Shown piece by piece: positions 1-49,400 of a DNA stretch of 64,000 bases. The DNA is from Eimeria praecox (lineage: Eukaryota). Location: NCBI GenBank assembly GCA_963920595.1, contig OY986948.1:2170001-2234000 (forward strand), given 5' to 3'. Under the pieces are notes generated by a model, which searched no databases, was not told the origin of the DNA, and saw nothing but the letters and a program-made list of their open reading frames with translations. Each line of letters opens with the position of its first letter. Position 1 is the first letter of the stretch. Both the position numbers and the translations under genes were made by a program.

Positions 1-3000
1 GGAAGAAGTATATCCTTCAAATCAGATCGAAGACATCTGTAAACTCACCAATCCAAGAAGCCCGTCATCAAAGAGCGAGTTTAACCCATACACCAATGCA
101 TGTGAATCTGTGTAGAAGGATAGATAAGGAAACCACTGGCAGATATCATCTCCCACACTTGCGGGAAGGCTCACTTTCTGCAAGTAAGACACCGCACAAA
201 CCCCATCCAAGCCAAGAATACAATGCAATGCATGCATCCGTATGAATCTGCTAGTTCAACAATGCAGCAATGCATATAATAAATCCTTCGAATCAAATCA
301 AAAATATTAGATAAACTCGCCGATACAATAAACCCAGCGAAATGGTAGTTCAGTGGATTTTACACCACTGCATGGGAATCTGTGTCGAAGGACAAGGAAG
401 ACACTGACACATGCCATCTCTCTCGCATGGGCAAAAACGCTTACTGGCTGCAAGTCAGTCATCGCTCATGCTCCATCCAAGCCAAAATACAATGCAGTGC
501 ATGCCCTTCAAAGAATATGCCTGTTCAAGCATGCAGCAGTGCAGGAAGAAGTATATCCTTCAAATCAGATCAAAGACATTTGTAAACTCACCAATCCAAG
601 AAGCCCGTCGAAAAGCGAGTTTAACCCATACACCAATGTATGTGAATCTGCGTCGAAGGATAGATAAGGAAACCACTGGCAGATATATCATCTCCTACAC
701 TTGCGGGAAGGCTCACTCTCTGCAAGTAAGAAAGCGCACAAACCCCATCCAATACAAAAATACAATGCAATGCATGCGGAGGTATGAATCTGCCAGTTCA
801 ACAATGCAGCAGTGCATCTAATAAATCCTTCGAATCAGATCAAAGATAAACTCGCCGATACAATAAACAAACCAAAATGCTAGTTTTAGCGGATTTTATA
901 CCACTGCATGTGAAACTTTGTCGAAGGAGAATGTAGCCACTGGCACAGGCCATGTCTATCCCGCATGGGCAAAAAAAAAGCTTACTGCCTGGAAGTCATT
1001 CATCGCGTAAACACCATCCAAGCCAAAATACAATGCAGTGCATCCCTTCCTAAGAATCTGGCTGTTCAAGGGTGCAGCAATGCATCTAATAAAACCTTCA
1101 AATCAGATCAAAAATATTAGATAAACTCGGCGATACAATAAACCCACCGAAATGGTAGTTTCAGTGGATTCTACAACCACTGCATGTTAATCTGTGTCGA
1201 AGGACAAAGAAGCCACTACCACATGCCATATTTATCTCTTATGGCGAAAAGAGCTTACTCCCTGCAAGCCATTCATCGCACAAACCCCATCCAAGCCAAA
1301 ATACAATGCAATGCATGCCCTTCTGTGAACCTGCCCGTTCAACCATGCAGTAATGCATCAAGAAATAAATCCATCGTATCAGATCAAAAATATTAGTTAA
1401 CTCGCCGATACAATAAACCCACCGAAATGTCCGTTCGGGCGACGTTCGCAACCACTACGTGTGAATCTGTATCGAAGGACTAGGAAGACACTACCACATG
1501 TTATATCTCTCTCGCATGCGCAAAAGGACCTTACTGTCTGCAAGCCATTGACCGCTCAAACCCCACCCAATACAAAAATACAATGCAATGCATGCTTCCA
1601 AAGAATCTGGCTGTTCAAGCATGCAGCAATGCATCTAATAAATCTTTCAAATCAGATCAAAAATACTAGTTAACTCGCCCATACAAAAAAACATACCAAA
1701 ATCCTAGTTTCAGTGGATTCTACAACCACTGCATGTTAATCTGTGTTGACGGACAAAGAAGCCACTGGCACTTGTCATATTTATCTCGCATGGGCAAAAG
1801 GAGCTTACGTCCTGCAAGCCATTCATCGCACAAACCCCATCCAAGCCAAAATACAATGCAGTGCATGCATTCCTATAAATATGCCTGTCAAGCACGCAGC
1901 AGTGCAGGAAGAAGTATATCCTTCAAATCAGATCGAAGACATCTGTAAACTCACCAATCCAAGAAGCCCGTCATCAAAGAGCGAGTTTAACCCATACACC
2001 AATGCATGTGAATCTGTGTAGAAGGATAGATAAGGAAACCACTGGCAGATATCATCTCCCACACTTGCGGGGAAGGCTCACTTTCTGCAAGTAAGACACC
2101 GCACAAACCCCATCCAATACAAAAATACATATGAATATGCCTGTTCAAGCATGCAGCAGTGCATCAAGAAGTATATCCTTCAAATCCGATCAAGGACATC
2201 TGTAAACTCACCAATCCAAGAAGCCCGTCGAAAAGCGAGTTTAACCCATACATCAATGCATGTGAGTCTGTGTAGAAGGATAGATAAGGAAACCACTGGC
2301 TGATTTCATCTCCCACACGTGCGGGGAAGGCTCACTTTCTGCAATTACGACACCGCACAAGCCACATCCAATACAAAAATACAATGCAATGCATGCATAG
2401 GTATGAATCTGCCAGTTCAACAATGCAGCAATGCATCTAATAAATCCTTCGAATCAGATCAAAAATATTAGTCAACTCGCCCATACAAAAAACACACCAA
2501 AATCCTAGTTTCAGTGGATTCTACAACCACTGAATGTTAATCTGTGTCGAAGGACAAAGAAGCCACTGGCACATGTCATATTTATCTCTTATGGCGAAAA
2601 GAGCTTACTCCCTGCAAGCCATTCATCGCACAAACCCCATCCAAGCCAAAATACAATGCAATGCATGTCCTTCTGTGAACCTGTCCGTTCAAGCACGCAG
2701 CAATGCATCAAGAAGTAAATCCGTCGTATCAGATCAAAAATATTAGTTATCTCGCCGATACAATAAACCCAAAGAAATGCCCGTTCCGGCGACGTTCGCA
2801 ACCACTACGTGTGAATCTGTATCGAAGGACTAGGAAGACACTACCACATGTTATATCTCTCTCGCATGCGCAAAAGGACCTTACTGTCTGCAAGCCATTG
2901 ACCGCTCAAACCCCACCCAATACAAAAATACAATGCAATGCATGCTTCCAAAGAATCTGGCTGTTCAAGCATGCAGCAATGCATCTAATAAATCTTTCAA

Positions 3001-6000
3001 ATCAGATCAAAAATACTAGTTAACTCGCCCATACAAAAAAACATACCAAAATCCTAGTTTCAGTGGATTCTACAACCACTGCATGTTAATCTGTGTTGAC
3101 GGACAAAGAAGCCACTGGCACTTGTCATATTTATCTCGCATGGGCAAAAGGAGCTTACGTCCTGCAAGCCATTCATCGCACAAACCCCATCCAAGCCAAA
3201 ATACAATGCAGTGCATGCATTCCTATAAATATGCCTGTCAAGCACGCAGCAGTGCAGGAAGAAGTATATCCTTCAAATCAGATCGAAGACATCTGTAAAC
3301 TCACCAATCCAAGAAGCCCGTCATCAAAGAGCGAGTTTAACCCATACACCAATGCATGTGAATCTGTGTAGAAGGATAGATAAGGAAACCACTGGCAGAT
3401 ATCATCTCCCACACTTGCGGGAAGGCTCACTTTCTGCAAGTAAGACACCGCACAAACCCCATCCAAGCCAAGAATACAATGCAATGCATGCATCCGTATG
3501 AATCTGCTAGTTCAACAATGCAGCAATGCATATAATAAATCCTTCGAATCAAATCAAAAATATTAGATAAACTCGCCGATACAATAAACCCAGCGAAATG
3601 GTAGTTCAGTGGATTTTACACCACTGCATGGGAATCTGTGTCGAAGGACAAGGAAGACACTGACACATGCCATCTCTCTCGCATGGGCAAAAACGCTTAC
3701 TGGCTGCAAGTCAGTCATCGCTCATGCTCCATCCAAGCCAAAATACAATGCAGTGCATGCCCTTCAAAGAATATGCCTGTTCAAGCATGCAGCAGTGCAG
3801 GAAGAAGTATATCCTTCAAATCAGATCAAAGACATTTGTAAACTCACCAATCCAAGAAGCCCGTCGAAAAGCGAGTTTAACCCATACACCAATGTATGTG
3901 AATCTGCGTCGAAGGATAGATAAGGAAACCACTGGCAGATATATCATCTCCTACACTTGCGGGAAGGCTCACTCTCTGCAAGTAAGAAAGCGCACAAACC
4001 CCATCCAATACAAAAATACAATGCAATGCATGCGGAGGTATGAATCTGCCAGTTCAACAATGCAGCAGTGCATCTAATAAATCCTTCGAATCAGATCAAA
4101 GATAAACTCGCCGATACAATAAACAAACCAAAATGCTAGTTTTAGCGGATTTTATACCACTGCATGTGAAACTTTGTCGAAGGAGAATGTAGCCACTGGC
4201 ACAGGCCATGTCTATCCCGCATGGGCAAAAAAAAAGCTTACTGCCTGGAAGTCATTCATCGCGTAAACACCATCCAAGCCAAAATACAATGCAGTGCATC
4301 CCTTCCTAAGAATCTGGCTGTTCAAGGGTGCAGCAATGCATCTAATAAAACCTTCAAATCAGATCAAAAATATTAGATAAACTCGGCGATACAATAAACC
4401 CACCGAAATGGTAGTTTCAGTGGATTCTACAACCACTGCATGTTAATCTGTGTCGAAGGACAAAGAAGCCACTACCACATGCCATATTTATCTCTTATGG
4501 CGAAAAGAGCTTACTCCCTGCAAGCCATTCATCGCACAAACCCCATCCAAGCCAAAATACAATGCAATGCATGCCCTTCTGTGAACCTGCCCGTTCAACC
4601 ATGCAGTAATGCATCAAGAAATAAATCCATCGTATCAGATCAAAAATATTAGTTAACTCGCCGATACAATAAACCCACCGAAATGTCCGTTCGGGCGACG
4701 TTCGCAACCACTACGTGTGAATCTGTATCGAAGGACTAGGAAGACACTACCACATGTTATATCTCTCTCGCATGCGCAAAAGGACCTTACTGTCTGCAAG
4801 CCATTGACCGCTCAAACCCCACCCAATACAAAAATACAATGCAATGCATGCTTCCAAAGAATCTGGCTGTTCAAGCATGCAGCAATGCATCTAATAAATC
4901 TTTCAAATCAGATCAAAAATACTAGTTAACTCGCCCATACAAAAAAACATACCAAAATCCTAGTTTCAGTGGATTCTACAACCACTGCATGTTAATCTGT
5001 GTTGACGGACAAAGAAGCCACTGGCACTTGTCATATTTATCTCGCATGGGCAAAAGGAGCTTACGTCCTGCAAGCCATTCATCGCACAAACCCCATCCAA
5101 GCCAAAATACAATGCAGTGCATGCATTCCTATAAATATGCCTGTCAAGCACGCAGCAGTGCAGGAAGAAGTATATCCTTCAAATCAGATCGAAGACATCT
5201 GTAAACTCACCAATCCAAGAAGCCCGTCATCAAAGAGCGAGTTTAACCCATACACCAATGCATGTGAATCTGTGTAGAAGGATAGATAAGGAAACCACTG
5301 GCAGATATCATCTCCCACACTTGCGGGGAAGGCTCACTTTCTGCAAGTAAGACACCGCACAAACCCCATCCAATACAAAAATACATATGAATATGCCTGT
5401 TCAAGCATGCAGCAGTGCATCAAGAAGTATATCCTTCAAATCCGATCAAGGACATCTGTAAACTCACCAATCCAAGAAGCCCGTCGAAAAGCGAGTTTAA
5501 CCCATACATCAATGCATGTGAGTCTGTGTAGAAGGATAGATAAGGAAACCACTGGCTGATTTCATCTCCCACACGTGCGGGGAAGGCTCACTTTCTGCAA
5601 TTACGACACCGCACAAGCCACATCCAATACAAAAATACAATGCAATGCATGCATAGGTATGAATCTGCCAGTTCAACAATGCAGCAATGCATCTAATAAA
5701 TCCTTCGAATCAGATCAAAAATATTAGTCAACTCGCCCATACAAAAAACACACCAAAATCCTAGTTTCAGTGGATTCTACAACCACTGAATGTTAATCTG
5801 TGTCGAAGGACAAAGAAGCCACTGGCACATGTCATATTTATCTCTTATGGCGAAAAGAGCTTACTCCCTGCAAGCCATTCATCGCACAAACCCCATCCAA
5901 GCCAAAATACAATGCAATGCATGTCCTTCTGTGAACCTGCCCGTTCAACCATGCAGTAATGCATCAAGAAGTAAATCCGTCGTATCAGATCAAAAATATT

Positions 6001-7430
6001 AGTTATCTCGCCGATACAATAAACCCAAAGAAATGCCCGTTCCGGCGACGTTCGCAACCACTACGTGTGAATCTGTATCGAAGGACTAGGAAGACACTAC
6101 CACATGTTATATCTCTCTCGCATGCGCAAAAGGACCTTACTGTCTGCAAGCCATTGACCGCTCAAACCCCACCCAATACAAAAATACAATGCAATGCATG
6201 CTTCCAAAGAATCTGGCTGTTCAAGCATGCAGCAATGCATCTAATAAATCTTTCAAATCAGATCAAAAATACTAGTTAACTCGCCCATACAAAAAAACAT
6301 ACCAAAATCCTAGTTTCAGTGGATTCTACAACCACTGCATGTTAATCTGTGTTGACGGACAAAGAAGCCACTGGCACTTGTCATATTTATCTCGCATGGG
6401 CAAAAGGAGCTTACGTCCTGCAAGCCATTCATCGCACAAACCCCATCCAAGCCAAAATACAATGCAGTGCATGCATTCCTATAAATATGCCTGTCAAGCA
6501 CGCAGCAGTGCAGGAAGAAGTATATCCTTCAAATCAGATCAAAGACATCTGTAAACTCACCAATCCAAGAAGCCCGTCATCAAAGAGCGAGTTTAACCCA
6601 TACACCAATGCATGTGAATCTGTGTAGAAGGATAGATAAGGAAACCACTGGCAGATATCATCTCCCACACTTGCGGGGAAGGCTCACTTTCTGCAAGTAA
6701 GACACCGCACAAACCCCATCCAATACAAAAATACATATGAATATGCCTGTTCAAGCATGCAGCAGTGCATCAAGAAGTATATCCTTCAAATCCGATCAAG
6801 GACATCTGTAAACTCACCAATCCAAGAAGCCCGTCGAAAAGCGAGTTTAACCCATACATCAATGCATGTGAGTCTGTGTAGAAGGATAGATAAGGAAACC
6901 ACTGGCTGATTTCATCTCCCACACGTGCGGGGAAGGCTCACTTTCTGCAATTACGACACCGCACAAGCCACATCCAATACAAAAATACAATGCAATGCAT
7001 GCATAGGTATGAATCTGCCAGTTCAACAATGCAGCAATGCATCTAATAAATCCTTCGAATCAGATCAAAAATATTAGTCAACTCGCCCATACAAAAAACA
7101 CACCAAAATCCTAGTTTCAGTGGATTCTACAACCACTGAATGTTAATCTGTGTCGAAGGACAAAGAAGCCACTGGCACATGTCATATTTATCTCTTATGG
7201 CGAAAAGAGCTTACTCCCTGCAAGCCATTCATCGCACAAACCCCATCCAAGCCAAAATACAATGCAATGCATGTCCTTCTGTGAACCTGTCCGTTCAAGC
7301 ACGCAGCAATGCATCAAGAAGTAAATCCGTCGTATCAGATCAAAAATATTAGTTATCTCGCCGATACAATAAACCCAAAGAAATGCCCGTTCCGGCGACT
7401 TTCGCACCCCTGCGTGTGAATCTGAATCGA
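1..7430. repeat. Near-identical higher-order repeats of 3256 bp (12 monomers) and 1350 bp (5 monomers)
   Basis: Identical ORF-track peptides recur at offsets of 3256 (353/3609, 1184/4440) and 1350 (1733/3083; near-identical at 5790/7140). Cassette positions follow the same offsets (175/3431, 1259/2609). Confidence 0.95.
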
Positions 7431-10400
7431 AGGACTAGGAAGACACTACCACACGTTATATCTCTCACATGGGCAAAAGGAGCTTACTAGCTGCAAGTCA
7501 TTGACCGCTCAAACCCCACCCAATACAAAAAATACAATGCAATGCATGCTTCCAAAGAATCTGGCTGTTCAAGCATGCAGCAATGCATCTAATAAATCCT
7601 TCGAATCAGATCAAAAATATTAGTTAACTCGCCCATACAAAAAACACACCAAAATCCTAGTTTCAGTGGATTCTACAACCACTGCATGCTAATCTGTGCC
7701 GAAGGACAAAGAAGCCACTGGCACATGTCATATTTATCTCGCATGGGCAGAAGGAGCTTACTCCCTGCAAGCCATTCATCGCACAAACCCCATCCAAGTC
7801 AAAATACAATGCAATGCATGCCCTTCTGTGAACCTGCCCGTTCAAGCATGCAGCAATACACCAAGGAATAAATCCGTCGTATTAGATCAAAAATATTAGT
7901 TTACTCGCCGATACAATAAACCCACCGAAACGTCCGTTCGGGCGACTTTCGCACCACTGCGTGCGAATCTGTATCGAAGGACTAGGAAGACACTACCACA
8001 TATTATATCTCTCACATGGGCAAAAGGAACTTACTAGCTGCAAGTGATTGATCGCGCAAACCCCATCCAATACAAAAATACACTGTCTGTTCAAGCATGC
8101 AGCAATGCATCTAATAAAACCTTCAAATCAGATCGAAAATATTAGCTAACCCGCCCATATAAAAAACACAACAAAGTGCTAATTGCAGCAGATTTTACAC
8201 CCACTGCATGTGAATCGAAGGAGAAGGAAGCCACTGGCAGATATCATCTCGCGCGCTTGAGGGTAAAGCTCACTTTCTGCAAGTGAGACATCGCACAAAC
8301 CCCACCCGATACAAAAATACAATTCAATGCATGCCTTTATAGGTATATGCACGCTCAGCGGTGCAGCCGTGGAGCAAGAAACAAATCTGTCGTATCAGAT
8401 TAAAAATATTAGTTAATTCGCCGATACAACAAACCCACAGAAATGCTAGTTTCAGCAAAATTTGCACCACTACATGTGAATATGTGTCGAGGACAAGGAA
8501 GCCACTACCACATGCCATACTTATCGCTGATGCGCAAAGGGAGCTTACTCCCTGCAAGTCATTCATCGCTCAAACCCCACCCACGCCCAAATACAATGCA
8601 ATGCATGCCCTCTGAACCTGCATGTTCAAAGATGCACCAATGCAGCAAGAAGTATAACCTTCAAATCAGATCAAAAATATTAATTAACTTGCCGATACAA
8701 CAAACCCACTGAAATGCTCGTTCCGGCCATTTTTATACCCCTCTATGTGAATCTATGTCGACGGTCAAGGATGCCACTGGCACATTTCATACCTATCTCG
8801 TCTGGGCAAAAAAAATACTTACAACCTGCAAGTCAGTCATCGCTCAAGCCCCATGAAATATAGAAATACAATGTAAAGCATATCCTGTGAACCTGCACGT
8901 TCAAATATGCACCAATACAGCAAAAAATATATCCTTCAAATCAGATCAAAAATATTAATTAACTCGCCAATACAAGAAAGCGACGGAAATGTTAGTTTGA
9001 GCGGAGTCTACATCACCGCATGCCAGTTTGTGTCGACGGACAAGGAAGCCATTGGAACATGCCATCTATCTATCTCCCATGGGCAAAAAGCCTTACTGCC
9101 TGCAAGTCACTCAGCACTCAAACCCGATGCAATACAAAAATACAATGCAATGCATGCCTTTCCAAGAATCTGCCTGTCCAAAGAAGCAGCAGTGCAGCAA
9201 AGAATATATCCCTCAAATCGGATCAAAGGCATCTGTAAACTCACCAATCCAACAAACCCGCCGAAAAGCGGGTTAAAGTCATATACCACTGCATGTGAAT
9301 CTGTGCCTAAGGACAAGGAAGCCACTGGCACACGTCATATCTCTCGAGAATGGGCAAAAAAAGCTTACTCCCTGCAAGCCATTCATCGCACAAACCCCAT
9401 CCAAGCGAAAATACAAAGAAGTGCATTCCTATCACAGATGCAGCAATGCACCTAATAAAGCCTTCGAATCAGATCAAAAATATTAGTTAACTCGCCCATA
9501 CAAAAAACACACCAAAATGCTAGTTCCAGTGGATTCTACACCACTGCATGTGAATCTGGGTCGAAGGACAAGGAAGCCCCTACCACATGTCATATATCTA
9601 TCGCATCGGCAAGAAGAGCTTACTGTCTGCAAGACATTCATTGCTCAAACCCCATCCAACACTAAAATACAACGCAATGCATGGCTTTGTGGATCTTCCC
9701 GGTCCAGGATGCAGCCATGGAAGAACAAGCATGTCCTGCAAATCGGAGCAAAGCTATGTGTAAAATCACCAATCCATGAAACCCACCGGAAAGCGAGTTT
9801 AAGCCATACTGCATGTGAGACTGTGTCGAAGGACAAAGAAGCCACTGGCACATGCCAGATCTATTTCGCATGGGCAAAAACACTTACTACCTGCAAGCCA
9901 GTCATCCCATAAACCCTACCCAATATAAAAATACAATGTAATGCATGCCTCAGAATCTGCCTGTTTAAGGATGCAACAATGTAGCAAGAAATGTATCCTT
10001 CGAATCAGATCAAAAATACTAATTAACTCGCCGAAACAACAAACCAACGGAAATGCTAGTTTCAGCGGATTTCACATCACCGCATGTGAATCTTTGTCGA
10101 AAGACAAGGAATCCATTGACACATGTTATGCCCATCTCTCATCGGCAAAAAAAGCTTACTGCCTGCAAGGCATTCACGGCTCAACTCCCATCCAATACTA
10201 AAGTACAATTCAATGCATGCCTTTCTAGCTATATGCACGCTCATCGATGCAGCCGTGCAGCAAGAAACAAATCCGTCGATCAGAGTAAAAATATTAGATA
10301 ACTCGCCGATACAACAAACGAACGGAAATGCTAGATTCAGCAAATTCTACACCACTGCATGTGAATAAGTGTCGAAGGACAAGGAAGTCGCTGGCACATG

Positions 10401-13400
10401 CCGTATCTATCGCGCATGGGCAAAATGCTTACTTCCTGCAAGTGAAACATAGCTCAAACCCCACCGAAGCCAAAATACAATGCAATGCATGTCCTCTGAA
10501 CCTGCATGTTCAAAGATGCACCAATGCAGCAAGAAACATATCCTTCAAATCAGATCGAAAATTAACTCGCCGATCCAATTAACCCATCGAAATGCTCGTC
10601 CCGGCGATTTTTACACAACTGCAAGTGAATCTGTGTCGATGGACAAGGGAGCCACTGGCGGATGCCATATCTATCTCGCGTGGGCAAAAAGACTTACTAC
10701 CTGCAAGTCAGCCATCGCACAAACCCCAACCAATATAAAAGTACAATGTAATGGATGTCCTCCTGTGAATCTGCACGTTCAAAGATGCACCAATGCAGCA
10801 AGAAATATATCCCCCAAATCGGATCCACAATATTAATTAACTCGCCGATACAACAAAGCGACGGAAATGCTACTTGTAGCAGGTTTTACACAACTGCGTG
10901 CGAATCCGTGTCGACGGCCAAGGAAGCCACTGGAGCACGTCATATCTATCTCGCATGGGCAAAAATAGCTTACTGCCTGAAAGTCATTCAGCACTTAAAC
11001 CCCATCCAATACAAAAATACAATGCAATGCATGCCTTTCTAGAGCCTGCCTGTTCAAAGACGCAGCACTGCAGCAAAGAAGTATATCCTTCAAATCAGAT
11101 CAAAGGCACCTGTAAACTAACTAACCCAACATGCCTGTCGAAAAGCGAGTTTAACCTGTACAGCAATGCATGTGAATCTGTGTCGAAGGATAAGGAAACC
11201 ACTGGCAGATATCATCTCCCACACTTGCGGGGAAGGCTCACTCTCTGCAAGTAAGACACCGCACAAACCCCATCCAAGCCAAGAATACAATGCAATGCAT
11301 GCATTCGTATGAATCTTCCAGTTCAACAATGCAGCAAAGCATCTAATAAATCCTTCGAATCAAATCAAAAATATTAGATAAACTCGGCGATACAATAAAC
11401 CCACCAAAATGCTAGTTTCAGTGGATCTTACACCACTGCATGGGAATCTGTGTCGAAGGATAAGGAAACCACTTCCACATGCTATATCTCGCATGGGCAA
11501 AAGGAGCTTACTCCCTGCAAGGCATTCATCGCTCGAACCCCATCCAATACAAAAATACAATGCAATGCATGCCTTTCTGTGAACTTGCCCGACCCAGGAT
11601 GCAGCTGCACAACAGAGCAAAGTTATGTGTAAACTCACCAATCCATGAAATCCGCCGGAAAGCGAGTTCAAGCCATGCATCACTGCATGTGTGACTCTGT
11701 AGAGGGACAAGGAAGCCATGGGCGCATGTCAAATCTATCTCGCATGGACAAAAAAAACTTACTACCTGCAAGTCATTCATCGCGCAAACCCCATCCAAAG
11801 AAAAATGCAATGTATTGCATGTCTTTCTGTGAACCAGCGCGTTCAAAGGCCCACCAATGCAGCAAGATCAAAAATATTAGTTAACTCGTCGATATAAGAA
11901 ACCAACCGAAATGTTCAGCAGGTTTTACACGACTCCGTGAGAATCTGTGTCGACGGATAAAGAAGGCACTGGAACATGTCATACCTATCTCGCATGGGCA
12001 AAAAAACTTACTGCCTGCAAGGCATTCACCGCTCAAACCCCATCCGATACAAAAATACAATGCAATGCATCCATTTCTAAGAATATGCCTGTTCAATGAT
12101 GCAGCGAAGTAGCAAGGAATATATCCTTCAAATCAGACCAAAGGCATCTGTAAACTCACCAATCCAAGAAACCCGCCGAAAAGCTAGTTTAAGCCATAAA
12201 CCACTGCATGTGAATGTATGTCGAAGGCTAAGGAAGCCTCTGGCCCACGCCAGATCTATATCACATGGACAAAAAAGGCTTACTCCCTGCAAGTCATTCA
12301 TCGCTCAAACCCCACCCAAGACCAAAATACAATGCAGTGCATGCCTTCCTATCAATCTGCCTGTTCAAGGATGCAGCAATGCAGCCAGGAATAAATGCGT
12401 CGAATCAGATCAAAAATATTTGCTAATCTGCTGATAGAAAAAACCCACCGAGATGTCTCTTTCAGCGGATTTTACATCAATGAATTCGAATCGGTGTCGA
12501 GGACAAGCAATCCACTGGCACATGTCAGATCTATCTCCTATGGGCAAAAGGAGCTTACCCGCTGCACGTCATTCATCGCCCAAACCCCAAGCAATATAAA
12601 AATACAATGTAATACATGTCCTTCTGTGAACCAGCACGTTCAAAGATGCACCAATGCAGCAAGAAATATATCCTTCAAATCAGATCAAAAATATTAATTA
12701 ACTCGCCGCTACAACAAGCCGACGGAAATGCTAGTTTCAGAGGATTCTACACCACTGCGTGCGAATCTGTCATGGAAGCCACTGGGACACGTACCTATCT
12801 CGCATGGGCAAAAAAATGCTTACGATCTGCAAGTCATTGATCGCTCAAAATCCATCCAATACAAAAATACAATGCAATGCATGCTTTCCTATGAATCTGC
12901 TTGTTCAAAGACGCAGCAATGCATCAAGAAATAAATCCGTTGTATCAGATCAAAAATATTAGCTAACTCGCAGATACAACAAACATGCCGAAATGCTCGT
13001 TTCAGCGGAATTTGCACCACTGCATGTGAATCTTTGCCGAAGGACAAGGAAGCCACTGGCACATGACATCTCTCTCCTGCAGGGGAAAAAAGCTCTTACT
13101 CCCTGCAAGCCATTCATCGCCCAAAACCCATCCAATACAAAAATAGAAGGCAATGCACGTCTTTGTGAAATTGCCTGTTCAAAGCCCGAGCAGTGGAGCA
13201 AGAAATATATCCTTCAAATCAGATCAAAATTATTTAACTCGCCGATACAACAAACCCACCGACATCCTAGTTCTAGCGGATTTTACATCACTGCATGTGA
13301 ATCTGTGTCGAAGCACAAGGAAGCCACTGGTACATGCCATGTCTATCTCGCATGGGCAAAACAAGCTTACTCCCTGGAAGTCATACAACGCTCAAACCGC

Positions 13401-16400
13401 ATCCGATACAGAAATACAATGCAATACATGCCCATCTAAGAATCTGCCTGTTCAAGGATGCAGCAGTGCAGCACGAAGCATATCCTTCAAATCAGATCAA
13501 AAACATCAATAAACTCACCAATCCAAGAAACCCGCAAAAAAGCGAGTTAAAGTCATGCAGCACTGCATATGAATCTGTGTCGAAGGACAAGGAAACCCGT
13601 GGCCGATATGATCTCTCGCGCTTGCGGGAAAAGCTCACTTCCTGCAAGTGAGATATCGCTTAAACACCATCCAATACAACAGTACAATGCAATGCATATC
13701 CTTCTAAGAATCTGTCCGTTCACAAACCCAGCAGTGTAGCAAAGAATATATCCTTCAAATCAGATCAAGAATATCAGTAAACTCACCAATCCAGCAAACC
13801 CACCGAAAAGCGAATTTAAGCCATACACTGCATGCGAATCTGTGTCGAAGGCCAAGCAAGGCACGGGCGCATGTCATATCTATCTCGCGTGGGGAAAAAA
13901 TGCTTACTGGCTGCAAGCCATTCATCGTTCATATCCCATCCAATACAAAAATACAATGCAATGCATGCCTAAGCATATGCCTGTTCAAAGATGCACCAAT
14001 GCAGCAAGAAATATATCCTTCGAATCAGATCAAAAATATTAGTTAACTCGCCGATACAATAAACCCGCAGAAATGCTAGTTTCAGCGGATTCTACACCCA
14101 CTGCATGTGAATCTGTGTCGAAGGACAAGGAAACCACCGGCGCATGTCATATCTAGCTCGCATGGGGAAAAGGAGCTTACTGGCTGCAAGCCATTCATCG
14201 CTCAAACCCCATCCAATACAAGAATAAAATGCGATAGGTGTCTGCCTCAGAATCTGCATGCTCAAGGATGCAGCAATGTCGTAAGAAAATTATTATTCCC
14301 TTCGAATCAGGTCGAAAATATTAGTTAACTCCCCAATCCAAGAAACCCAGCGAAATGCTAGTTTCAGCGGGTTTTACACTAATTCGCGGAATTCCATGTC
14401 GATGCAGAAGGAAGCCACTGGCACATGCCATGTCTCTCATGGACAAAACAAGCTTACTAGCTGCAAGCCACTCATTGCGCAAACCCCATCCAATACAAAA
14501 ATAGAAGGCAATGCAAGCCATCTAAGAATCTGCCTGTTCAAGGATGCAGCAATGCAGCACGAAACATATCCTTCAAATCAGATCAAAAACATCAGTAAAC
14601 TCACCAATCCGAGAAACCCGCAAAAAAGCGAGTTAAAGTCATACAGCACTGCGTATGAATCTGTGTCGAAGGACAAGGAAACCCGTGGCCGATATGATCT
14701 CTCGCGCTTGCGGGAAAAGCTCACTTCCTGCAAGTGAGATATCGCTTAAACACCATCCAATACAAAAGTACAATGCAATGCATGCCTTCCTCAGCTTCCT
14801 TCTTTTCAAGGGTGGAGCAAAGCGGCATGAAATATATCCTTGCAATCACGCCAAAAATATTAACTCGCCGATACAACAAATCCACCGAAATGCTAGTTCG
14901 GGCAATTCATACATCACTGCATGCGAATCTGCGTCGAAGGACAAAGATGCCACTAGCACATGCCATATCTGTCTCGCATGGGGAAAAAAAGCTTACTCCC
15001 TGCACGTGGAACATCACTCAAAACCCATACAAAAACAGAATGCAATGCATGCCTTTCTAAGAACCTGCCTGTTCAACGATGCAGCAATGCCGCAAGGAAT
15101 AAATCCTTCAAATCAGATCAAAAACATTACTTAACTGGCCCATACAAAAAACCAACCGAAATGCTAGCTTCAGCGGATTCTACACCACTGCATGCGAACC
15201 TTTGTCGAAGGACAAGGAAGCCACTGGTGCATGCCATATCTATCTCACATGGGCAAAAAGAGCTTACTATCTGCAAGCCATTTATCGCCCAATCCCCATC
15301 CAATACAAAAATACGATGCAATGCATGCCCTTCCAAGGATATGCTGCTCAAGCATGCAACAATGCAGCAAGGCGTATATCCTTCAAATCAGATCGAAAAT
15401 CTTAGTTAACTCCCCCCCCCAAAACTTACTCCCTGCAAGTCGTACATCGCTCAAACCCCGTCCAATAAAAAAACAATGTAATGCATGTCCTCTGAACCTG
15501 CCTGATCAAGGATGGAGCAATGCGGCAAGAAATCTACCCTTCAAATCAGGTATGATCGAGGATTGAGCCATGCAACTAATGTATCCTTCAAATCAGGTCA
15601 AAAGCATTAGCTAACTCGTCGATACAACAAACCGACGGAAATGCTAGTGTCAGCGGATTTTACATTACTGCATGCGAATCTATGTCTAAGGACAAGGAAG
15701 CGGCTGGCACATGCCATATCTATCTCGCATGGGCAAAAAAACCTTACTGCCTGCCAGTCATTCAGCGCTTACGCACCACCCAGTACAAAACTGCATTCCA
15801 ATGGATAGCTTTATCAAACTCTGCCTGTTCAAGCATGCAGCAGTGCAGCAAGAAATATGTCCTTGGTATCAGATCAAAGACATGTGTAAACTCACCAATC
15901 CAAGAAATCCGCCAAAAAGCGAGTTTAAGCCCTACATCGCTGCATGCGAATGTGTGCCAAAGGTCCAGGAAGCCACTGGCGCATCTCGCATGGGCAAAAA
16001 AAACTTACTACCTGCACGTCATTCACATCTCAAACCCCCTCCCAGACAAAAATACAATGCATCTCCTTCTTAGAGTCTGCATGTTCAAAAATGCACCAAT
16101 GCAGCAAGAAATATATCAGATCGAAAATATTAGTTAACTCGCCGATACAACAAACCCACCGAAATGCTAGTTCCAGCGGATCTTACATCACTGCATGTGA
16201 ATCTGTGTCGAAGCACAAGGAAGCCACTGGCTCATGCCATGTCTACCTCGCAGGGGCAAAAAAACCTTACAACCTGCAAGACATTCATCGCTCCAACACC
16301 ATCCAATAGAAAATAAAACGCAATGCATGTCCTTTTGTGAGGCTGCGCGCTCAAAGGCGTAGCAATGCGGCTAGAAATATATCCTTCAAATCAGATCAAA

Positions 16401-17625
16401 AACATAAGTAAACTCACCAATCCAAGAAACCAGCCGGAAAGCGAATGTAAACCATACAGCATGTGCATGTGAATCGGTGTTGGAGGGAAGGAAACCAGTG
16501 GCAGATATCATCTCCCGCACTTGAGGGAGAATCTCACTCTCTGCAAGTAAGACATCGCTCAAATCCCATCCAATATAAAAATACGATGCAAAGCGTGTCT
16601 CTGCGAACCTGCCTGGTCGAGGTTTGAGCGATGCAACAAATATATCCTTTGAATCTGATCCAAAATATTAGTTAACTCGCATATACAACAGATGCACCGA
16701 AATGCTGGTTTTAGCGGATTTTACACCACTGCGTGCGAATCTTTATCGAAGGACAAGGAAGCCACAGGCACATGCCATACCTACCTCGCATGGAGGAAAA
16801 AATGCTTACTGGCTGTAAGTAATTTATCGCTCAAACCCCACCCAACACAAAAATAGAATACAATGCGTGGCTTTCTGTCAATCTGCCCGCTCGAGGATGG
16901 AGCTGAGCAGCAACAAACATCCTCGGAAATCAGATACCAGTAAGCTCACCAATCCAAGACACCCGCTCAAAACCGTGCAGCCATACATCACTTGCATGCA
17001 AATCTGTGTCGAACGACAAGGAAGCCATTGCCATATGTTATATCTATCTCGCATGGGCAAAAAGAGCTTACTAGCTGCAATTCATTCACCGCACAAACCC
17101 CATCCAATACGAAAAACGATGCAATGCATGCCTTTCTAAGAATCTGCATGTTCAAAGACGCAACGATGCAGCAAGAAATATATCCTTCAAATCATATCGA
17201 AAATATTAGTTAACTCCCCGCTACAACACACCCACCGACATGCTAGTTCCAGCGGATTCTACACCACTGCATGTGAATCTGTGTCGAAGGACAAGGACAC
17301 CACTAGCGCATGCCATATCTATCGCGCATGGGCAAAAACACTTACTCCCTGCAAGCCATTCATCGCTCAAACCCCATCCAATAAAAAAAAATACAATGCA
17401 ATGCATGCCTTTCTATGAATCTGCCTGTTCAATGATGCAGCGGCGCAGCAAGAAAGAAATCCTTCGAAGCAGATCAGAAATACTAGTTAACTCGACGGCA
17501 CAATAAACCCACCGAAAAGCTATTTTCAGTGAATTTTACACCACTGCGCGTGAAGCTGTGTCGAAGGACAAGGAAGCCACTGGCACATGCCATATCTCTC
17601 CCGCATGGGCAAAAAAGCGTACTCG
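175..17625 (-). CDS. 66 consecutive 3-nt exons, one per satellite monomer, encoding RGLPRVVAGIGELPPEGGIRGAVGRAVEAVTGAVGKLGLGKKDTGKKDTGARPKDTGKKDTGARPK
   Basis: Lowest plus coordinate and minus-strand codon, in transcription order: 17623 CGA, 17346 GGA, 17072 CTA, 16810 CCA, 16538 AGA, 16271 GTT, 16009 GTA, 15748 GCA, 15430 GGA, 15268 ATA, 14997 GGA, 14725 GAA, 14458 CTA, 14181 CCA, 13908 CCA, 13639 GAA, 13371 GGA, 13100 GGA, 12824 ATC, 12559 CGG, 12284 GGA, 12012 GCA, 11763 GTA, 11512 GGA, 11242 AGA, 10974 GCA, 10698 GTA, 10433 GAA, 10160 GCA, 9888 GTA, 9624 ACA, 9369 GGA, 9097 GCA, 8823 GTT, 8549 GGA, 8274 AAA, 8035 CTA, 7762 GGA, 7488 CTA, 7215 GGA, 6942 AAA, 6688 AAA, 6415 GAC, 6141 ACA, 5865 GGA, 5592 AAA, 5338 AAA, 5065 GAC, 4791 ACA, 4515 GGA, 4242 GCA, 3973 AGA, 3701 CCA, 3431 AAA, 3159 GAC, 2885 ACA, 2609 GGA, 2336 AAA, 2082 AAA, 1809 GAC, 1535 ACA, 1259 GGA, 986 GCA, 717 AGA, 445 CCA, 175 AAA. 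All are flanked by CAG and GTAAG/GTGAG (one GTACG). Confidence 0.82.
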
Positions 17626-26600: not shown

Positions 26601-29600
26601 TAGGAGCAGAAGCGCATTCTGGATTAAACCAAAGGCAGCAGGGTGCATTATGTTTTCCCTAAGAGACCTCTAACCAACACAAGCGGCGTCCAGTGAATTG
26701 GCCCCCCTCTGCAATGCGTGCGCAGCTCCCCCTTTCTACTTGATTAGCAGCCGCTATGGAAGTTTGCAGTCACCTCACACCTCACCACGTCACAAGCAAG
26801 AGGCTCCATACACAGAACTCACCTCCTGAACGACTCCCAGCTAGCCCCAAGACTTACCTGGCGCGTTAAAAAAGCCACAGCCCACACCCGCCACACCCCT
26901 GAAGTCCAACTCCCGCATCTATACGCTAGTGCGAAGGTAACCATCTATGGCGCTAGAACGTACAACCTGCATATGAAGGGATGAAGCATTCCGGTTGCAT
27001 GGGGCTAAATGCCGCTCCCGTGAAGCACCCGTTGACAGGATATGAATCTTAAACTGCGCTCACGTGCTGTTGTCACACCAGTTCACGAATAAGGCCTGGA
27101 ATTGAGCTATATGAACGTACTGGTAGGTGCTTTGTTTCATGCAGCATGGGATAACGACAATTCTGATTCAAAAGTTGCAAACTACAGGAATAGGAAATGT
27201 GGATGATGTGATTCCCTATGGAGTCGTGTCAGCAGGATATCTTCAGATACAGCCGACAGGGTGATTCCACAATGTCAGGGGCTACGCACAATCTGCCATG
27301 TCAGCAGACTAGCTCTACATGCGTTGGGGCTTCTCAAATTTCGAGCAGCTGCAGTTACACCATGCCCCCAATCCCCATCCCTGTAGATGCAACGTCTGAA
27401 CTGGAATTGCCGTTATCCCCGAAACGCTTAACACATGCAGCACGAAACAAAAAAGCTATGCTGCTATCACTTCGCCAACCTCTGTAACCGGTTGAAGAGC
27501 TTGACGAACGTCCTGTAGAAAATTCAAAATATGCTGTATGGCTTATCACTGAAAGACTAGCAAGCCTATTCGCCTGTGCTAGTGCTGTACTCCTCTAGAT
27601 GCTTGCTCGCTATCTACCGTCGACTCACTTTCTGCATCATTACTTTTTCACTCGTCCTCTAGTCAGGTGAATAACTCCCAAAAAAACGGGCGGAGCTGCC
27701 AACTCACACAGCACCTGCATCCCAAGGATAGTCTTCCCTTGGTGCTGCCATATAAGGCCTGGTGCGTATTTGCAGAACAAATGCAACAAGCGCGAGAGGC
27801 TTACAGCCTGAAAAATAGGCGTTTGCTTCGCCGGGAATGTTCGCCGTGAACAACCGCGCAGATCCACTGACAGTGCGTAAGCGATGCCTTCTGCAACGTA
27901 AAGCGATGCGCTTCCACGCTTTCCAAAGGAACTGCTGTGCACCGCACCAGCTACATTTCAGGGGGTACACCGAGACCAATCCTCAAACGCAAGCAATGAA
28001 TGCGTGTTTGGATTTTTCTAAGGAATTCCTCGTTGTGGCCAGCATCCTAAGCAATCTTCTACTACCTAATCCGGCGAACCTCTGTCGTTCTGCAAAGGCC
28101 GGCAACTCTGCTGTTCAGCTTGACTGTCCGAACCACGCACCACCTGCAAAAGCAACGATCAATTTTAAGCAATTAGGCCCTGCCCACGTTCGACTTACAT
28201 CAGCACGCTAGAGAAGTCTGAAGTACTAGGTGAGTACCACAGCATGCATGCATCGCGCTGCACCGCTCCTTCGGAAGCTGGGATAGCTCCTTTTCTCACT
28301 CCCTGAGCATTCAGTATAGCCCTACTAGTCGCCGACTGTTCAAATCTGGCCGCAACGGTCATGCGGCGTGTTGCAGGCGATATGCTAGTGTAGCCTTCAA
28401 AAAAATGGATGCGAACCAACCAGCGGCTATCTAAATGGGTCAGGCACGGCGGGCGCACTCCCTTGACATTCAAGTGGAACCCCCATTCTCCTTCCAAGCA
28501 TCCTTAACGTCTACAACCCTACGAGCTGAAACGGAGCTCCGCACTCTATTGAAAAGAGCTGAACGGTCCACTCCTGCTCTATGCGATATAAGCACAAGCG
28601 CCTGGGTTGATATTTTACCCTTCTCTAAGGCTAAAGTGTTCTTCCTCTTTGCGCAGCTTCTGCACTGTTCACCAGCAATGCGTTACCCAAAACTGCTATC
28701 CTCGCTAATACACAAAACCGAGCGGCTTCTCACCACTGCTGCACCTACAAAGCAGGAAACTTAGATTTGATCGCTTGTGCAGCTTCGTGAAATTCCTTCC
28801 AGTCTACCTATGGACCCCAAGAAGCCACCATCGCATAACAAAGCACTAACTACCACGTTTAGCCCTAGTTATCTCTATCACGACAGATTGATTCTTGCGC
28901 TTAAAAGTAGTAGCTGTAGGCAAATTCAACACACTGCCTGCAGATTCGAAAGAGTCCGCACCGAATCTAGAAACCGTTAAAAATGACACCTGGCTACCGG
29001 CTAAAAGCACGAAAGCCTAGGACGATTGGACCCTTATAAGTAGGTGTACGAACTCTAGTTGTACTCTTGTGAAACTCTAGAAGATTGGATGCTTAGAACT
29101 AGGTGCACGAACTCTAGTTGTACTCTGTCGAACCCGACAATGGCACAACGTGATAGGTAAATGGTGTTTTCGACGAGCTCTCTTGCTGTTCCCTAGCAAT
29201 TCTTGAGTCTTTTACGCACTGCCTGCAAATCGCGTATATTTGCTTTCCTGCCTTCAACTATAGGCAGCCGTTGGTGCTCCGGGAGGGGATGTGGTCCGAG
29301 TCTGCCCGCTGAAGCTAATCAGCTGGCACTAACGTCAAAATATCCTCGCTTCACACACAAGCAGCAAAAGCGAGATTGAATAGGGACGTTCTAGCATATT
29401 CTAACTACGTAAGACACTACGCCCCCTTTGCTCAGCTGCACATACTGCCTGGAGACTCAGCCGGCTTCAGCAGCCATCCCCTCCTTTGAATGTCGGCTGA
29501 AAGCATGCTGCACCTGATGTTGTAATGCTGTCCAAATGCAGAGCAAAGGCACAACCTAGTGTGCGCATCTTTCTAAATTCACTCGTTCAAACATATCAGA

Positions 29601-32600
29601 GCAGGAGAGGTATGATGATTTCCGCATAATTCTTATGCCACGGCCTAGTTACAATATCTGCTCTGCCTACAAAGTACCAATCGTAGCCCGACGCACAGCC
29701 TAAAGGATGCACAGCTCTTACTGAAAGCTGCACGTGTGGCTAACCCACGCGCAGATTTGGGCTCGTTTGAGATGAACGAACCCAATATGCTCGTTGAATA
29801 GCAACAAAAACGAAACAGCACTTCACAGAAGAAATGTTTGACGCAACCCACTGCCTGCCGATTTTTGCACAGCGCTGTTCTGCTAACTGCGAATATCCAT
29901 CTTGCAAAATGCTCCCTCAGCCCGCGTTAGTGGCTGGCAAAATAATCCCGTGCCGGTTCAGCCAACAAAGAAAGGCATTCACCCGCTATAGCATAGGCTC
30001 TGCAAAATGCTGCTCAAGCACACTACTGCCCAGTGGCGCAAGACACTCACTGCCTGGTTGTTGGATGTCATGCAGACAACCCTTTCTCCGAAAGGTATAG
30101 ACCCGAAAACGCATGCATTTTTTGGACGAGCTTGGTGGCCGTACGCAAATCATGGAAGCGAAAGGTCTTCCTGGCGGTGCAAGGCACTTACTGCCTTAAG
30201 ATTAAGTGGGCATGGCTAGCAAAGAGTACGGGTAGCCTGCGCCTTACCAACGCTCAACGCTTGTGTGCAGATCGTAGGAGTGCCGAGACCCCTCCCGATA
30301 GCACTGAGCATTCCTGTATAGCCATTAGCTCCATCCATCTCAAAGGACTGGCTCATGCATTGTCCATCAATTCCAAATAACTACACAAAATCCACTGCGA
30401 TGAACGCGAGCATGGTGCAGGAAATCCTCAAACACGCAAAACGCACCTTCCATGTCTACCGTCCTGCGCGGTAGCAGCGTTAATGCATAAATCAAGCCTG
30501 ATTTCCTTTTTGCCTAAGGGGACCCGAACCCAGGCCTTCCAACCGACGTACAAGCTGTAATGAAGGCAACAATTTGTCCCTACATCTTTACTGCTCACAA
30601 TTAAAGCCCCGCAGGATTCGTTCAACTAAAACTAGGAACTGTTTTGTTAGAACTACACACTAACCAACCACAAGCAGACAGCAATCCTAATGCTGAGCCT
30701 GGTGGACGTAGCACACTCCCTTCCCAGCGGATTTTCAGATAGCACAATTACCACTAGCTAGGGAAAATGGAATGGGCAGGGCGCGTTGCACCCACATCAC
30801 CAGATGCTGCGGACAACTGGACAAACCAATGAAATATTCTACGTAAATGACCCTATCACCCTATCCTAATTCTCTGCCTCTATGGCCTCCCGCGCACAGC
30901 CTTTTGCCCCAGGATGCACATGATTGCGCCTAGCCTTAAATCAACAGCGGCAGTGAGGAAGACCCTGGGGGATTAGGAGCCACTTTCTAGGGGAAGCCTC
31001 TATGTATTGCTGCGCTCTAATCTACCAGCATACTTCCTGCGGTTTCCCAAACATCCTCCACAAGAGGCAAACGTCGCAAAAATGGTTCAAAACTTTACCA
31101 TAATATTACTAGTCTGCAAGTCTTGTTATTGCCCCTATGAATTTCTTGTGGATGCAGTGCATACTCCCTGTATATTCGGCAAAGCATCCAGCGTAGGTTT
31201 GTGGAGAGCAAAGCCCATCGGAAGCCTGCTATAACGGCCGTGTAACCACCGGGCAGCATAGCTTTAGTAATACCTCCAGGAAAATGACGCGGCCTCTGCA
31301 TATGATGCAGTCAACTGCCCTTTATTTGCGGGAACTACTCCCAGTGACATACTCCCTTAGCCAAAAATGTACTTTTTGTGCCTGTCGAGGGTAATACTCT
31401 GCGTGAAATTCACTTGCCCGCACTACTGTATGGTAATACAAAAAGTGGCTCGTTTAGTGATGCACTTCTTAAACGCCCAGGAAGCTACTCCCTGGACGTA
31501 ATTTTTTAGCCCTACACGCGTACTCCCTGGACGCCGAATATGCGAGGATATTTCGACTTCTCCCTATTGCAGCAAGGTACACTGCTTATACTGGCTCGCC
31601 GTTTTATCCCCTGGGCACGAACAACAAAATCCAGAATGCCAGAATGCCCCCGTCATATTCGAGGCAGCATGCAAGTTCAACTGCCTCATCACAACATCAA
31701 ATTAGCATGCTTGGCATGTTGGGAAGTGCCCAGAAGAACGAAATCCTTCAGTTTAGTCGCCGTACTGTATCACTCACTGCCTGCAACAACGGCGTAAGCT
31801 GTCCAAGGGACAGGACATCTTCTGTTCCCGCCCCAAAAAATCAATGGGGGTGCCAGTGCAATGCAAAAGCAGCCATAGTCGTTTGCAACAAACAGTATGA
31901 CGTTACAGGTTACGGGCGTGCTGCGCCTTCGTCAAACGACAGACAAAAGCACCACTAACCTCAGCTAACCTCCGCAGTAAACCCATGAAAAGACGGCCTT
32001 CCATTAACAGCAGGAAGCCAGCACGTTATCGTGATTTGTACGTCTCCCATACGGCTTCCTGCTATAGACGCCTACTTTGCATGCGGGAAAAATACAGAAT
32101 ATGCTCACAACAAGCCTGCATCACGCCCTCTCGCCCTTTTTCTACTACCTGCCTCATCCAAATCAAACTCACTTTCTGGGGGAGGAATACAATTAGGGGA
32201 ACACGATCTGCAGATGCACCACGACGCAACTTTGCAAACGACAGCCTACCGAGTGTAGATAATATTGGGGCGTCTATTTACTGGGCAATTTCGGCGAGGT
32301 AGCACACTGTGCTAGCCCGCAAATACACCGAACGAATCGGCCCTAAACAAATGGCCACTACCTTGGGCAAAACTGCTGGTGCTCGTGCACCAACAACAGG
32401 GGCCAACTACGCTCACCCAAAAACGCTCGCGTTGGATGCCGCACAACACGAACTCCTTCAAACTTACATTCTGTAGTGTCAAAATGGAATATGAGACGGG
32501 AGCAGCCCAACAGTGTTCCTGCACGCAGTCCCCTAACGCGGAGCTCCTTCTGGGCTCAATAATTTTGGCAATAGTTCGCTTGCATGTGTCTGCGGTGCGC

Positions 32601-34378: not shown

Positions 34379-34429
<51 letters not shown>

Positions 34430-46400: not shown

Positions 46401-49400
46401 GGAATCCTAAGGTTAGCTAGCTAGACACTGAAACTAGTATCAGGCTATCCAGGTTCTGCCTTAACGGCAATCTGACATACGACCTGACGATTGTGCTTGT
46501 CAAGTTTGTCTGGGCGTTGTAGACTGCCAACTTTCTCCTGAAATCACGTTAATCGCACATGAAGCGCTGTCCTAGAACCTCTATTCAAACTTTCGTCCCA
46601 CAAAACTCACGCTCTGTTCGACAAATAGATCACGAGGGACGCAGAAGAGAATCGCAGCTTCAGGTAAATTAAAGAGAAGCAAGACAGTCCTTACTGTAGC
46701 CATATGCCCCTTCACCTCCCTCCCCTAAGATTGGCTACGTACACACTGAAAGAACGAATTTCGCCAGCCGTCCATCCGCATATAATCGTACAGAGCCGGA
46801 TGAAAGTTTTTAATGATGGCATCTTACTGGCAGCTGCAACAAGAGTGAAGCACTTAATTAGCCATATCACACTCAAAACATAATTATGGCTGCCTGCGCA
46901 CTTTGCGTATGTACATCGCTCTCCTACTTGCACAAATGCTCATCATGCCTCTACCCACATTCTGCAACATTCCGGAGCATAATCCCTGTTACAGGAAGTG
47001 TTGCGCCGAGGATACGCTTTTTTGCAATGCCCGGCTGGCATTCTGAATCACTGCTTTGCAGGATGAGCGACCCTAAACGCTGGAGTTTGAATCACAGCTA
47101 ACCTCCGATTGAGCAACACACAGATGACAGCAACTAGCTCTTGCAAGGGCGTCCAGGTACCTCACCAATGCTCACCAATTTGCAATCCAAGGAACAAGTG
47201 GACCACCACGCAACGCAATCGCAGGATACACCGGGAAGTAGTACAGATGCTAGTGGGACCGTCTTTCCATGCAAACTGGGAGCCCCGTTGCTTTCCCAGC
47301 GCTAAACGTTCTGCAATAAACTGGTAACTCTGCGCCCCTGTATTCTGCCTCCTTCCAACGTACTTTCTAAGGCGCCACAGTCTCTCTCTACGTAGTCTGA
47401 AGTGTTACAGCGAATGCAACAGTGGACAAAATGCCAACCAACCGCTATCAGCGCAATGCAGCCTTCCGTTTCTTGCCTGGTGGGACGTATACGCAGATAT
47501 TACATATAATCAAGCAACATAAGTATCATCCGTGCACCCCATATGCAAGCCAACAAACAGCACTGAAGATACAAGCCTAACATGCGGAGGAATATAAAAG
47601 GGTGGTTCGCCTAAGAGCTGAAAAGGAATGAACGGCAGCACTGAGGCCTTTGTGGAAGGGATGACGAATTCTAAAGCAGCTTCCATCTAGCGACACTGTC
47701 ATTATTATTCACTTTAACAGAAGCTTCTGTCTATCTGCATCTGAGACGTACGCGCTAAAAGAACTCACCAACGAACCTTCCTTTTAACATCCACAAAGTG
47801 CTCCAAACACAGCGTATGACGCATTATGAATGCGGAGGTACACCATGATAAAACGTCCGAGCCTCTTGGCCTCTCCTTCATTAATGCCACCCAAATATGA
47901 GCAGGCTGACCTCTAAGATAGCTGGCTCAATATGTCCTGTACGTGTCTTAAATGGCGCTTGGGCAGCTGCTTGGTCCTTGCAGCATTCCTGTTGAATGCT
48001 ACCTCATGCACGAAGGATACGAGTTGAACAAAACAGCCCTACGATGCTGCTCCTTAGCAATTAGCCATTCGCCGTTGTATAGTGTAAATGGGGCACGCAG
48101 CATACATCCTGCATATTACAAGCGCACTGCTACGACTGAAGTCCTTAAACAACAAAGTTAAGGAACACTCCTAGATCTTCGGGATGCAAAGTATATTTCC
48201 ATTTCACTGACCAGACACACACCTCACTTCGCAAACACACACCGCAGCTGCCAGCCGGGAAGCCCGAATGCGAAGGAAGGGGTGTTGTGCAACGCACGAA
48301 CTGAACGGTAGTGCAAAACAAGCAATAAAGCCACACTAATCCACGACTGCACCTCCTGTGCAGACACTCGTAGCAGATACCTTTCCACAACTAGACAGAA
48401 TTTCCCCCATAATAATTCACATCAACAGGGAAAACGGCTCGGCCGTTGCCTACGGATCCTAAGCTTCGCTGGAATATCCTAAGTTTTGCTGGAATAGAAG
48501 GGGCTTGCGCAACGAACAAGCTGAATATTATCCCAAACAGCCCCACATTTTCCACAGGCATTTCCGGTTCAGCTCTAGTCTGTGGCTATGCCTTTGCCGA
48601 AGCCCACCTCTTTGCACCGCCTCAAGGCAGGACAAAAGAGTTGGCTGGCATGCCTCACGAGGTCTTATCTAAAATGCCTATCGTGATAGTCCAGCCTGAA
48701 CAAAGAATCGCGACATTTCCTCTGGCGCTACCTCCCGCGAAAAGGATTGATAGCACTGATCAAGCATCTCTATGCCTGCTTCAATTTGGCATCCACCTTT
48801 GGCAAAGCAAGCAACCGATACCAGAAACCAGTTCGCCTGATTGCTCAAGAACGCATCAGACGTTCTCCACAAACGTGCAAAAGATCTTATCAATGCTCGA
48901 CTCTACAGCAGCTGAACTTGGCAGATCCCCCACACGGCTCTGCATCTGGCCGCTCGACCACTCAAGCCGCCAGCACTCACATCCTACAAATTGTAAAGGC
49001 ATCAAGCATGTCTAGCCCATATTTACTCCAGCGCTCATCTTCCGCACTTTAATTGCACCACAGTCCGCAAGCATGCAAACCGCTGACATCCACGCCAGGC
49101 AGCAGTGCCACAACACCAAGCACCACGGACGACACCACAACTCTGCCTCTAACACGCACTCTCTACGCATCAAAAAGATGCCTTGCAGCCTCATTTAGGC
49201 TGCTATGCGCATCTCAGAACGCGGATATCGTTTATGCTCCTAGAATCTCCAACCTCGTTCAGCCTATCTTTGACAAAGTGTCATATTAACGTATGGCGCC
49301 ACTTTCCCCTATGCAGTACCTCCACAAGGAAAGCAACATCACAACTCCTCCTGGAGCTCCACCGCTGCCAACTCCACGACTCAGTCTCTACAACACGCAC

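Follow-up and report, generated by a model that had tools for sequence, protein, structure and literature searches.

Exons as short as a single codon are known from a few unrelated systems. The NACHT-ankyrin (nank-type NLR) genes of Tuber melanosporum contain alternatively spliced 3-bp mini-exons in runs of tens or dozens, according to the available excerpts of three accounts (PMC4986451, PMC13449251, PMC9815663). The Schistosoma MEGs encode secreted proteins from exons of 3-81 bp that are separated by introns of up to 5 kb, as described in the accessible part of a further account (PMC10526429). Among plant microexons of 1-15 nt, even 1-nt exons can be spliced in, and the portion of that study available to us describes them as single or two adjacent exons among normal exons rather than as chains (PMC8831610).

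The window, by which we mean the whole 64,000-nucleotide stretch of Eimeria praecox DNA analysed here, carries AG-NNN-GT units that recur every 100-350 nt over all 64 kb. These units resemble the Tuber NLR genes, as excerpted, in having runs of candidate 3-bp exons between canonical introns and variation that is safe for the reading frame, here at the level of sequence. Unlike the arrangement in those excerpts, the candidates number about 230, are spread across 64 kb or more and have introns of 100-350 nt, and over half of the chain has unrelated introns. There is also no NLR exon in the window, where none of 126 ORFs passes the Pfam cut-off and the gene ends lie outside. The likeness to the Schistosoma MEGs, so far as the accessible text describes them, is that most of the coding sequence is predicted to lie in short, frame-preserving exons, whereas the exons called here are uniformly 3 nt long, the median intron is 186 nt and no start is called in the window. 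Codon-sized mini-exons have already been published for the truffle, judging from the excerpts available, and what appears to be new is the length of the chain together with its unrelated introns. No whole-gene chain of one-codon exons this long, or with unrelated introns, was found in the literature searched, which largely excluded subscription journals.

Two further comparisons concern repeats and introns of other kinds. Alpha satellite consists of diverged monomers grouped into near-identical multimers through unequal crossover, and the window shows the same grouping. Unlike satellite, every monomer here couples splice dinucleotides that never vary with a single hypervariable triplet, and instead of lacking coding-type constraint it has its most changed column at exon position 2. 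Introner-type introns are similar introns at unlinked sites between exons of ordinary size. Here, the similar introns are in tandem blocks, the middle introns are unrelated and no longer exons were detected.

A motif from the splice region of the left array gave no matches in metagenome contigs. A generic three-exon pattern was found at no fewer than 118 metagenome and 4 viral loci, many of which consist of short, perfect repeats in tandem that all have the same triplet and were not counted as exons; among the matches listed, none resembles the window by BLAST. Seventeen of the 122 loci listed were picked for variable triplets. Their arrays share the AG-NNN-GT architecture of the window, with an intron of about 67 nt plus a variable triplet and only one stop in the 17 loci. 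They have a period of about 70 nt, at most 74 units and homologous short introns in 17/17 (mean identity 0.59-0.92), and unrelated introns were seen in none of the 17 examined of the 122 listed. Ankyrin or NACHT ORFs stand beside the array in 3 of the 10 loci with ORFs scanned (L020, L022 and L050), and the variable-triplet arrays there are directly downstream of these ORFs, as in the truffle design that the excerpts describe. The loci L027:926-6567 (minus-strand count), L063 and L006 have 15-54 variable triplets, introns of about 68 nt at 0.59-0.68 identity and no stops. These three arrays are possibly of an age intermediate between tandem arrays and unrelated introns.

What the window shows is probably the middle part of a single minus-strand gene whose exons are nearly all one codon long. 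The latest in-frame duplications of that gene are likely the repeats of 1350 and 3256 bp near the left end of the window. The main interest is this proposed gene rather than the repeats that it holds. Most of the chain lies in sequence that is not repetitive:

17800-48983, minus strand: non-repetitive chain of candidate 3-nt exons, 95 by the strict rule and 135 by the relaxed rule, with mutually unrelated introns of median 186 nt.

The strict rule was YAG-n-GT on the minus strand, with GT followed by GCG, GAG, ACG or AAG. This donor set was picked after inspection of the data and was then used equally for every n and either strand. For n = 3 on the minus strand there are 66, 95 and 30 sites in the left, middle and right zones, respectively. 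Each of 40 other values of n (0 to 40) gives only 1-14 sites in the middle zone, n = 3 on the plus strand gives 2, and 200 runs of a second-order Markov null give a mean of 4.9 and a maximum of 12. The spacing of the middle-zone sites is also regular, with 3 gaps below 100 nt against 24.7 expected (0/20000 simulations). There are 242 sites in the window under the relaxed rule (66 left, 135 middle and 41 right), of which some 10-15 are expected to be false, leaving a chain of about 230 units; roughly 10 of the false calls belong to the middle zone, where other values of n give 7-16 sites. The candidate donors in the chain include GTGCGT, GTGAGT, GTACGT and GTAAGT.

Among the 108 middle introns tested there is no BLAST similarity, and their global identity is 0.54 versus 0.52 for shuffles. 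In the unique zone, exon sizes of 0, 1, 2 and 4-12 nt are not over-represented, and neither a remnant of 6-, 9- or 12-nt exons nor a surplus of split codons was seen. A small excess at 7 and 11 nt included repeated sequence at 49-64 kb. Isolated acceptor-donor pairs with good scores are present on the minus strand at 33950 (2 nt), 48128 (2 nt), 36181 (1 nt), 42153 (4 nt) and 26858 (0 nt). Some of these could be split codons; as classes they are not above background. There is no clear enrichment of a branch-point motif, and a (GT)23 microsatellite at 34381-34427 falls inside a predicted intron.

The middle-zone triplets read as a stop-free peptide of mixed composition. There are no phase-0 stops among the 95 strict middle sites (4.6 expected, P=0.004; range for the middle zone P=0.003-0.004) and none among the 242 relaxed sites, versus 11/241 and 15/241 in the shifted frames. 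Part of this avoidance may be driven by splicing, because TAA or TGA after AG would make an overlapping donor; with TAG left out, P=0.01. A frame shift of 2 likewise yields no stops if only the left array is considered. The Lys, Gln and Glu triplets of 17800-48983 (minus strand) shun a final G (AAA/AAG 9/0, CAA/CAG 6/0, GAA/GAG 5/2), perhaps because NAG before GT would make a competing acceptor. The order of the residues has features of its own:

28935-30194, minus strand: seven successive Ala triplets (6 GCA, 1 GCT), with unrelated introns between them.

The run has P=5e-5 in the relaxed set, and its introns are no more alike than shuffles; in the strict set the longest Ala run is only 3 and is not significant (P=0.31). 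It opens the most hydrophobic 17-residue stretch (30900-27292), and hydropathy is clustered in the middle zone (P 0.02-0.04). An H-x-D...H spacing in this zone, which we take to be reminiscent of 2OG-Fe(II) oxygenases, is not claimed as a relationship.

There is no start or stop within the called chain, which reaches both ends of the window. Composition changes along it: 19/41 residues are Asp or Glu on the right, the middle is mixed, and 10/27 are Lys or Arg at 1-7.4 kb. Pfam was applied to 126 of the 134 ORFs listed for the window, and matches to Colipase_C and EB below the curated cut-off were taken as chance; Rfam has no matches in the window. No conventional gene competes with the chain there, and the case for a protein-like joined product is made from internal statistics of the predicted sequence.

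To the right of the middle zone, repeats are found again:

48983-63800, minus strand: older mixed repeats of several intron types at 75-98% identity, with 41 candidates (19 Asp/Glu) and some homologous sites broken.

Nine of 52 homologous sites are broken here and two have GC donors, so codons have also been lost. The initial annotation had proposed frame-safe editing of a peptide repeat by recombination; these broken sites qualify that proposal, and the loss of a 3-nt exon still keeps the frame. This region includes a second 272-bp array (54048-55417 and 56835-57650) whose units are 96-98% identical and all carry GAA (5 and 3 Glu). It has the same period as the left array and no BLAST similarity to it, and indeed no BLAST similarity was found between the left array, the middle zone and the right repeats. 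A 107-bp tandem duplication at 62365-62585 copies a donor without an acceptor, and the upstream site has a GC donor.

One possibility is that the triplets are real but optional exons, and that heavy skipping yields a cloud of in-frame variants in which the full chain is rarely made. There is a published precedent in the alternatively spliced 3-bp mini-exons that the excerpts describe (PMC4986451, PMC13449251, PMC9815663), and both the fast codon change in the left array and the dead sites at 49-64 kb would fit diversification. The features of the middle zone that depend on order, namely the Ala run and the clustering of hydropathy, instead suggest a selected order of residues, and no NACHT, ankyrin or HET exon is present in the window. 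We consider optional exons unlikely, although they are the strongest of the alternatives.

The left end of the window holds the youngest part of the proposed chain. There are two higher-order repeats at 1-7.4 kb, one of which includes a copy of the other:

1-6677, minus strand: 12-monomer (3256-bp) higher-order repeat, with full copies at 3422-6677 and 166-3421 and a third that probably begins at the window edge.
4694-7399, minus strand: 5-monomer (1350-bp) higher-order repeat, a tandem pair, with a third copy at 1438-2793 inside a 12-mer copy.

Exact-offset self-comparison of the window gives periods of 1350 and 3256 and their combinations. A shift of 3256 leaves 5 mismatches in 3421 nt (1-3421 versus 3257-6677), a shift of 1350 leaves 5 in 1356 nt (4694-6049 versus 6044-7399) and a shift of 4606 leaves 1 in 1356 nt (1438-2793 versus 6044-7399). 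The 5-mer is thus present three times, and copies are 99.6-99.9% identical. Positions 1-174 match the intron after exon 3433 at 174/174 nt, including a diagnostic 1-nt deletion, which makes it probable that another 12-mer copy, the third, begins at the edge. When monomers are counted from one minus-strand exon candidate to the next, 1350 bp holds 5, with the phase-0 reading KKDTG, and 3256 bp holds 12, reading KKDTG+ARPKDTG. These counts and peptides agree with the initial annotation, whose term 'encode' is best read as a prediction, and the identity of the copies, introns included, supports the recent expansion that it proposed. The Lys-rich peptide repeat that it described is present but gives an incomplete picture, since it accounts for just the final 27 units in a chain of some 230 single codons.

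The junctions between copies indicate how they arose:

5868-6140, minus strand: hybrid junction intron of the 5-mer duplication, with a crossover near 6044-6049 and a conversion-like 4-site tract at 5940-5957.

As far as alignment column 91, introns 6143 and 2887 have the bases of the T>G type (intron 4793) at 11 diagnostic sites; from column 98 on they have those of the L>G type (intron 7490). Read from the alignment, they arose when two different introns crossed over at homologous positions, and because junction introns are hybrids of two parents, unequal crossover in register is indicated. The hybrid is common to both 12-mer copies, and the 5-mer duplication is therefore the older of the two. 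Four linked T>G-type bases at 5940-5957 occur in intron 6143 alone and look like a later conversion. The 12-mer junction can be placed just behind the donor, since the intron after exon 3433 shares its 1-nt deletion with the R>P intron, and a private base at 6541 is a further difference between copies. Unequal crossover of an ordinary kind accounts for the higher-order repeats themselves. It had been suggested that such crossover anywhere in the array adds or removes whole codons; the hybrid introns bear this out for exchange in register, and 'anywhere' was an overstatement.

Alternatively, the chain could be real and the 1350- and 3256-bp repeats could be assembly artefacts, arising from chimeric joins at homologous positions. 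Copies at 99.6-99.9% identity invite this explanation, and a misjoin could also yield hybrid introns. Nevertheless, the copies are nested in a consistent order, the differences between them include four linked sites with the bases of a paralogous intron as well as the private base at 6541, the window is free of N, and like duplications of 75-98% identity at 49-64 kb show the process to be biological. We regard an artefact as improbable.

Our fuller reading, to which we assign a probability of roughly 0.55, is that the window encodes a complete stretch of protein longer than 200 residues, with a non-repetitive domain that takes up about 120-135 of them, written as one codon per exon over more than 64 kb and made by serial duplication of an intron plus a codon, with every age of this process preserved. 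The gene would grow by duplicating intron-plus-codon blocks, after which codons would diverge under selection and introns would decay until they can no longer be aligned. This would give rise to the gradient in similarity, from 99.9% identity at 1-7.4 kb through about 72% at 7.4-17.7 kb and 75-98% at 49-64 kb to unrelated introns at 17.8-49 kb. No older higher-order period stands out at 7.5-17.6 kb (lag identities 0.71-0.74). Intron definition would govern the removal of each intron. Removal would probably be ordered, since by an established steric argument an acceptor and the donor that follows it after 3 nt cannot both be occupied at once. The joined triplets would be translated in phase 0, and both exon skipping and unequal crossover would then be frame-safe. 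The predicted product has, in this order, an acidic repeat, a mixed segment with a hydrophobic Ala/Gly helix and a Gly/Lys-rich repeat tail.

The same arrangement might instead have been reached by single, Introner-like insertion of introns at every codon boundary of an existing gene, which would account for unrelated introns around a protein-like middle zone. The uniform exon size of 3 nt favours duplication, because insertion into an older gene leaves unexplained the absence of any residual 6-, 9- or 12-nt exons or split-codon excess. In addition, the 108 middle introns have no BLAST matches among themselves, and in the array tandem duplication is evident from blocks of several monomers and from the hybrid junctions. 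Intron insertion is thus quite improbable as the origin of the chain.

The monomers of the left array bear on whether the triplets are translated:

175-17625, minus strand: 272-bp monomer array of 66 candidate 3-nt exons between homologous GT-AG introns.

Tandem Repeats Finder reports the monomer from 169 to about 17.7 kb. The repeats noted earlier at 1-7.4 kb are confirmed, and the monomer array extends well beyond 7.4 kb. Every monomer combines a GT-AG intron on the minus strand with a candidate exon of 3 nt (66/66 intact) and has the splice signal CAG-NNN-GTRAG, or GTACG in one unit, and there is no monomer without a site. Breakpoints that destroy cassettes, which the initial annotation had named as evidence against its own proposal, were not found in the left array, where the 65 introns between the 66 candidates are 159-315 nt long and none is double-sized. 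Two irregular monomers at 15273-15429 (159 nt, deletion) and 15435-15747 (315 nt, insertion) both have AG-NNN-GT intact.

Mean identity among 48 non-redundant introns is 0.72. Only 10 of 262 columns are invariant among 47 non-redundant units, and 7 of these 10 are splice-signal bases, with AG and GT invariant in 47/47. Heterozygosity at exon positions 1, 2 and 3 is 0.58, 0.75 and 0.20 versus a median of 0.23. On a tree of the 47 monomers made without the exon bases, these positions changed 15, 22 and 5 times, and for the 259 intron columns the median is 4 changes and the highest value 18. Codon position 2 thus changes more than any intron column and position 3 behaves like intron. The 21 closest monomer pairs show 48% difference at codon position 2, compared with 7.4% in the flanks. 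Codon and flank are weakly linked in the array, as are upstream and downstream sequence (Mantel r 0.17; P 0.007 and 0.015). As far as the alignment reveals it, the pattern of change is that of amino-acid diversification in phase 0, the alternative being site-directed mutation of the triplet.

A different explanation is that the splice signals are used in a non-coding transcript, or serve as recursive-splicing points in one giant intron from which the triplets are discarded. The coding density of only about 1% and the lack of a start or stop in the chain would suit such a transcript. A spacing fixed at 3 nt (sizes of 0, 1, 2 and 4-12 nt are not over-represented), the avoidance of stops and the codon-position pattern are hard to understand without translation, and we consider this explanation very doubtful. 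Plain satellite DNA with chance splice-like motifs is hardly credible, because the satellite-like monomers and higher-order structure of the left 17.7 kb leave unexplained both the 95 sites in 31 kb of non-repetitive DNA and the two hypervariable bases inside invariant AG and GT. These comparisons lead us to consider it probable, on sequence grounds, that the triplets form an ordered chain of exons and are translated.

If the chain is spliced as predicted, the spliceosome would join more than 200 consecutive 3-nt exons. This extreme gene design would offer a natural test of intron definition and of the order and fidelity of splicing. The predicted mRNA has no mappable word in common with its gene, and therefore gene finders and RNA-seq aligners would miss the gene and label the locus as satellite or intergenic. 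Similar genes may hide in other genomes. The chain would also represent a route to new protein sequence, in which introns of 270 bp recombine and single residues are gained or lost while the frame is kept.
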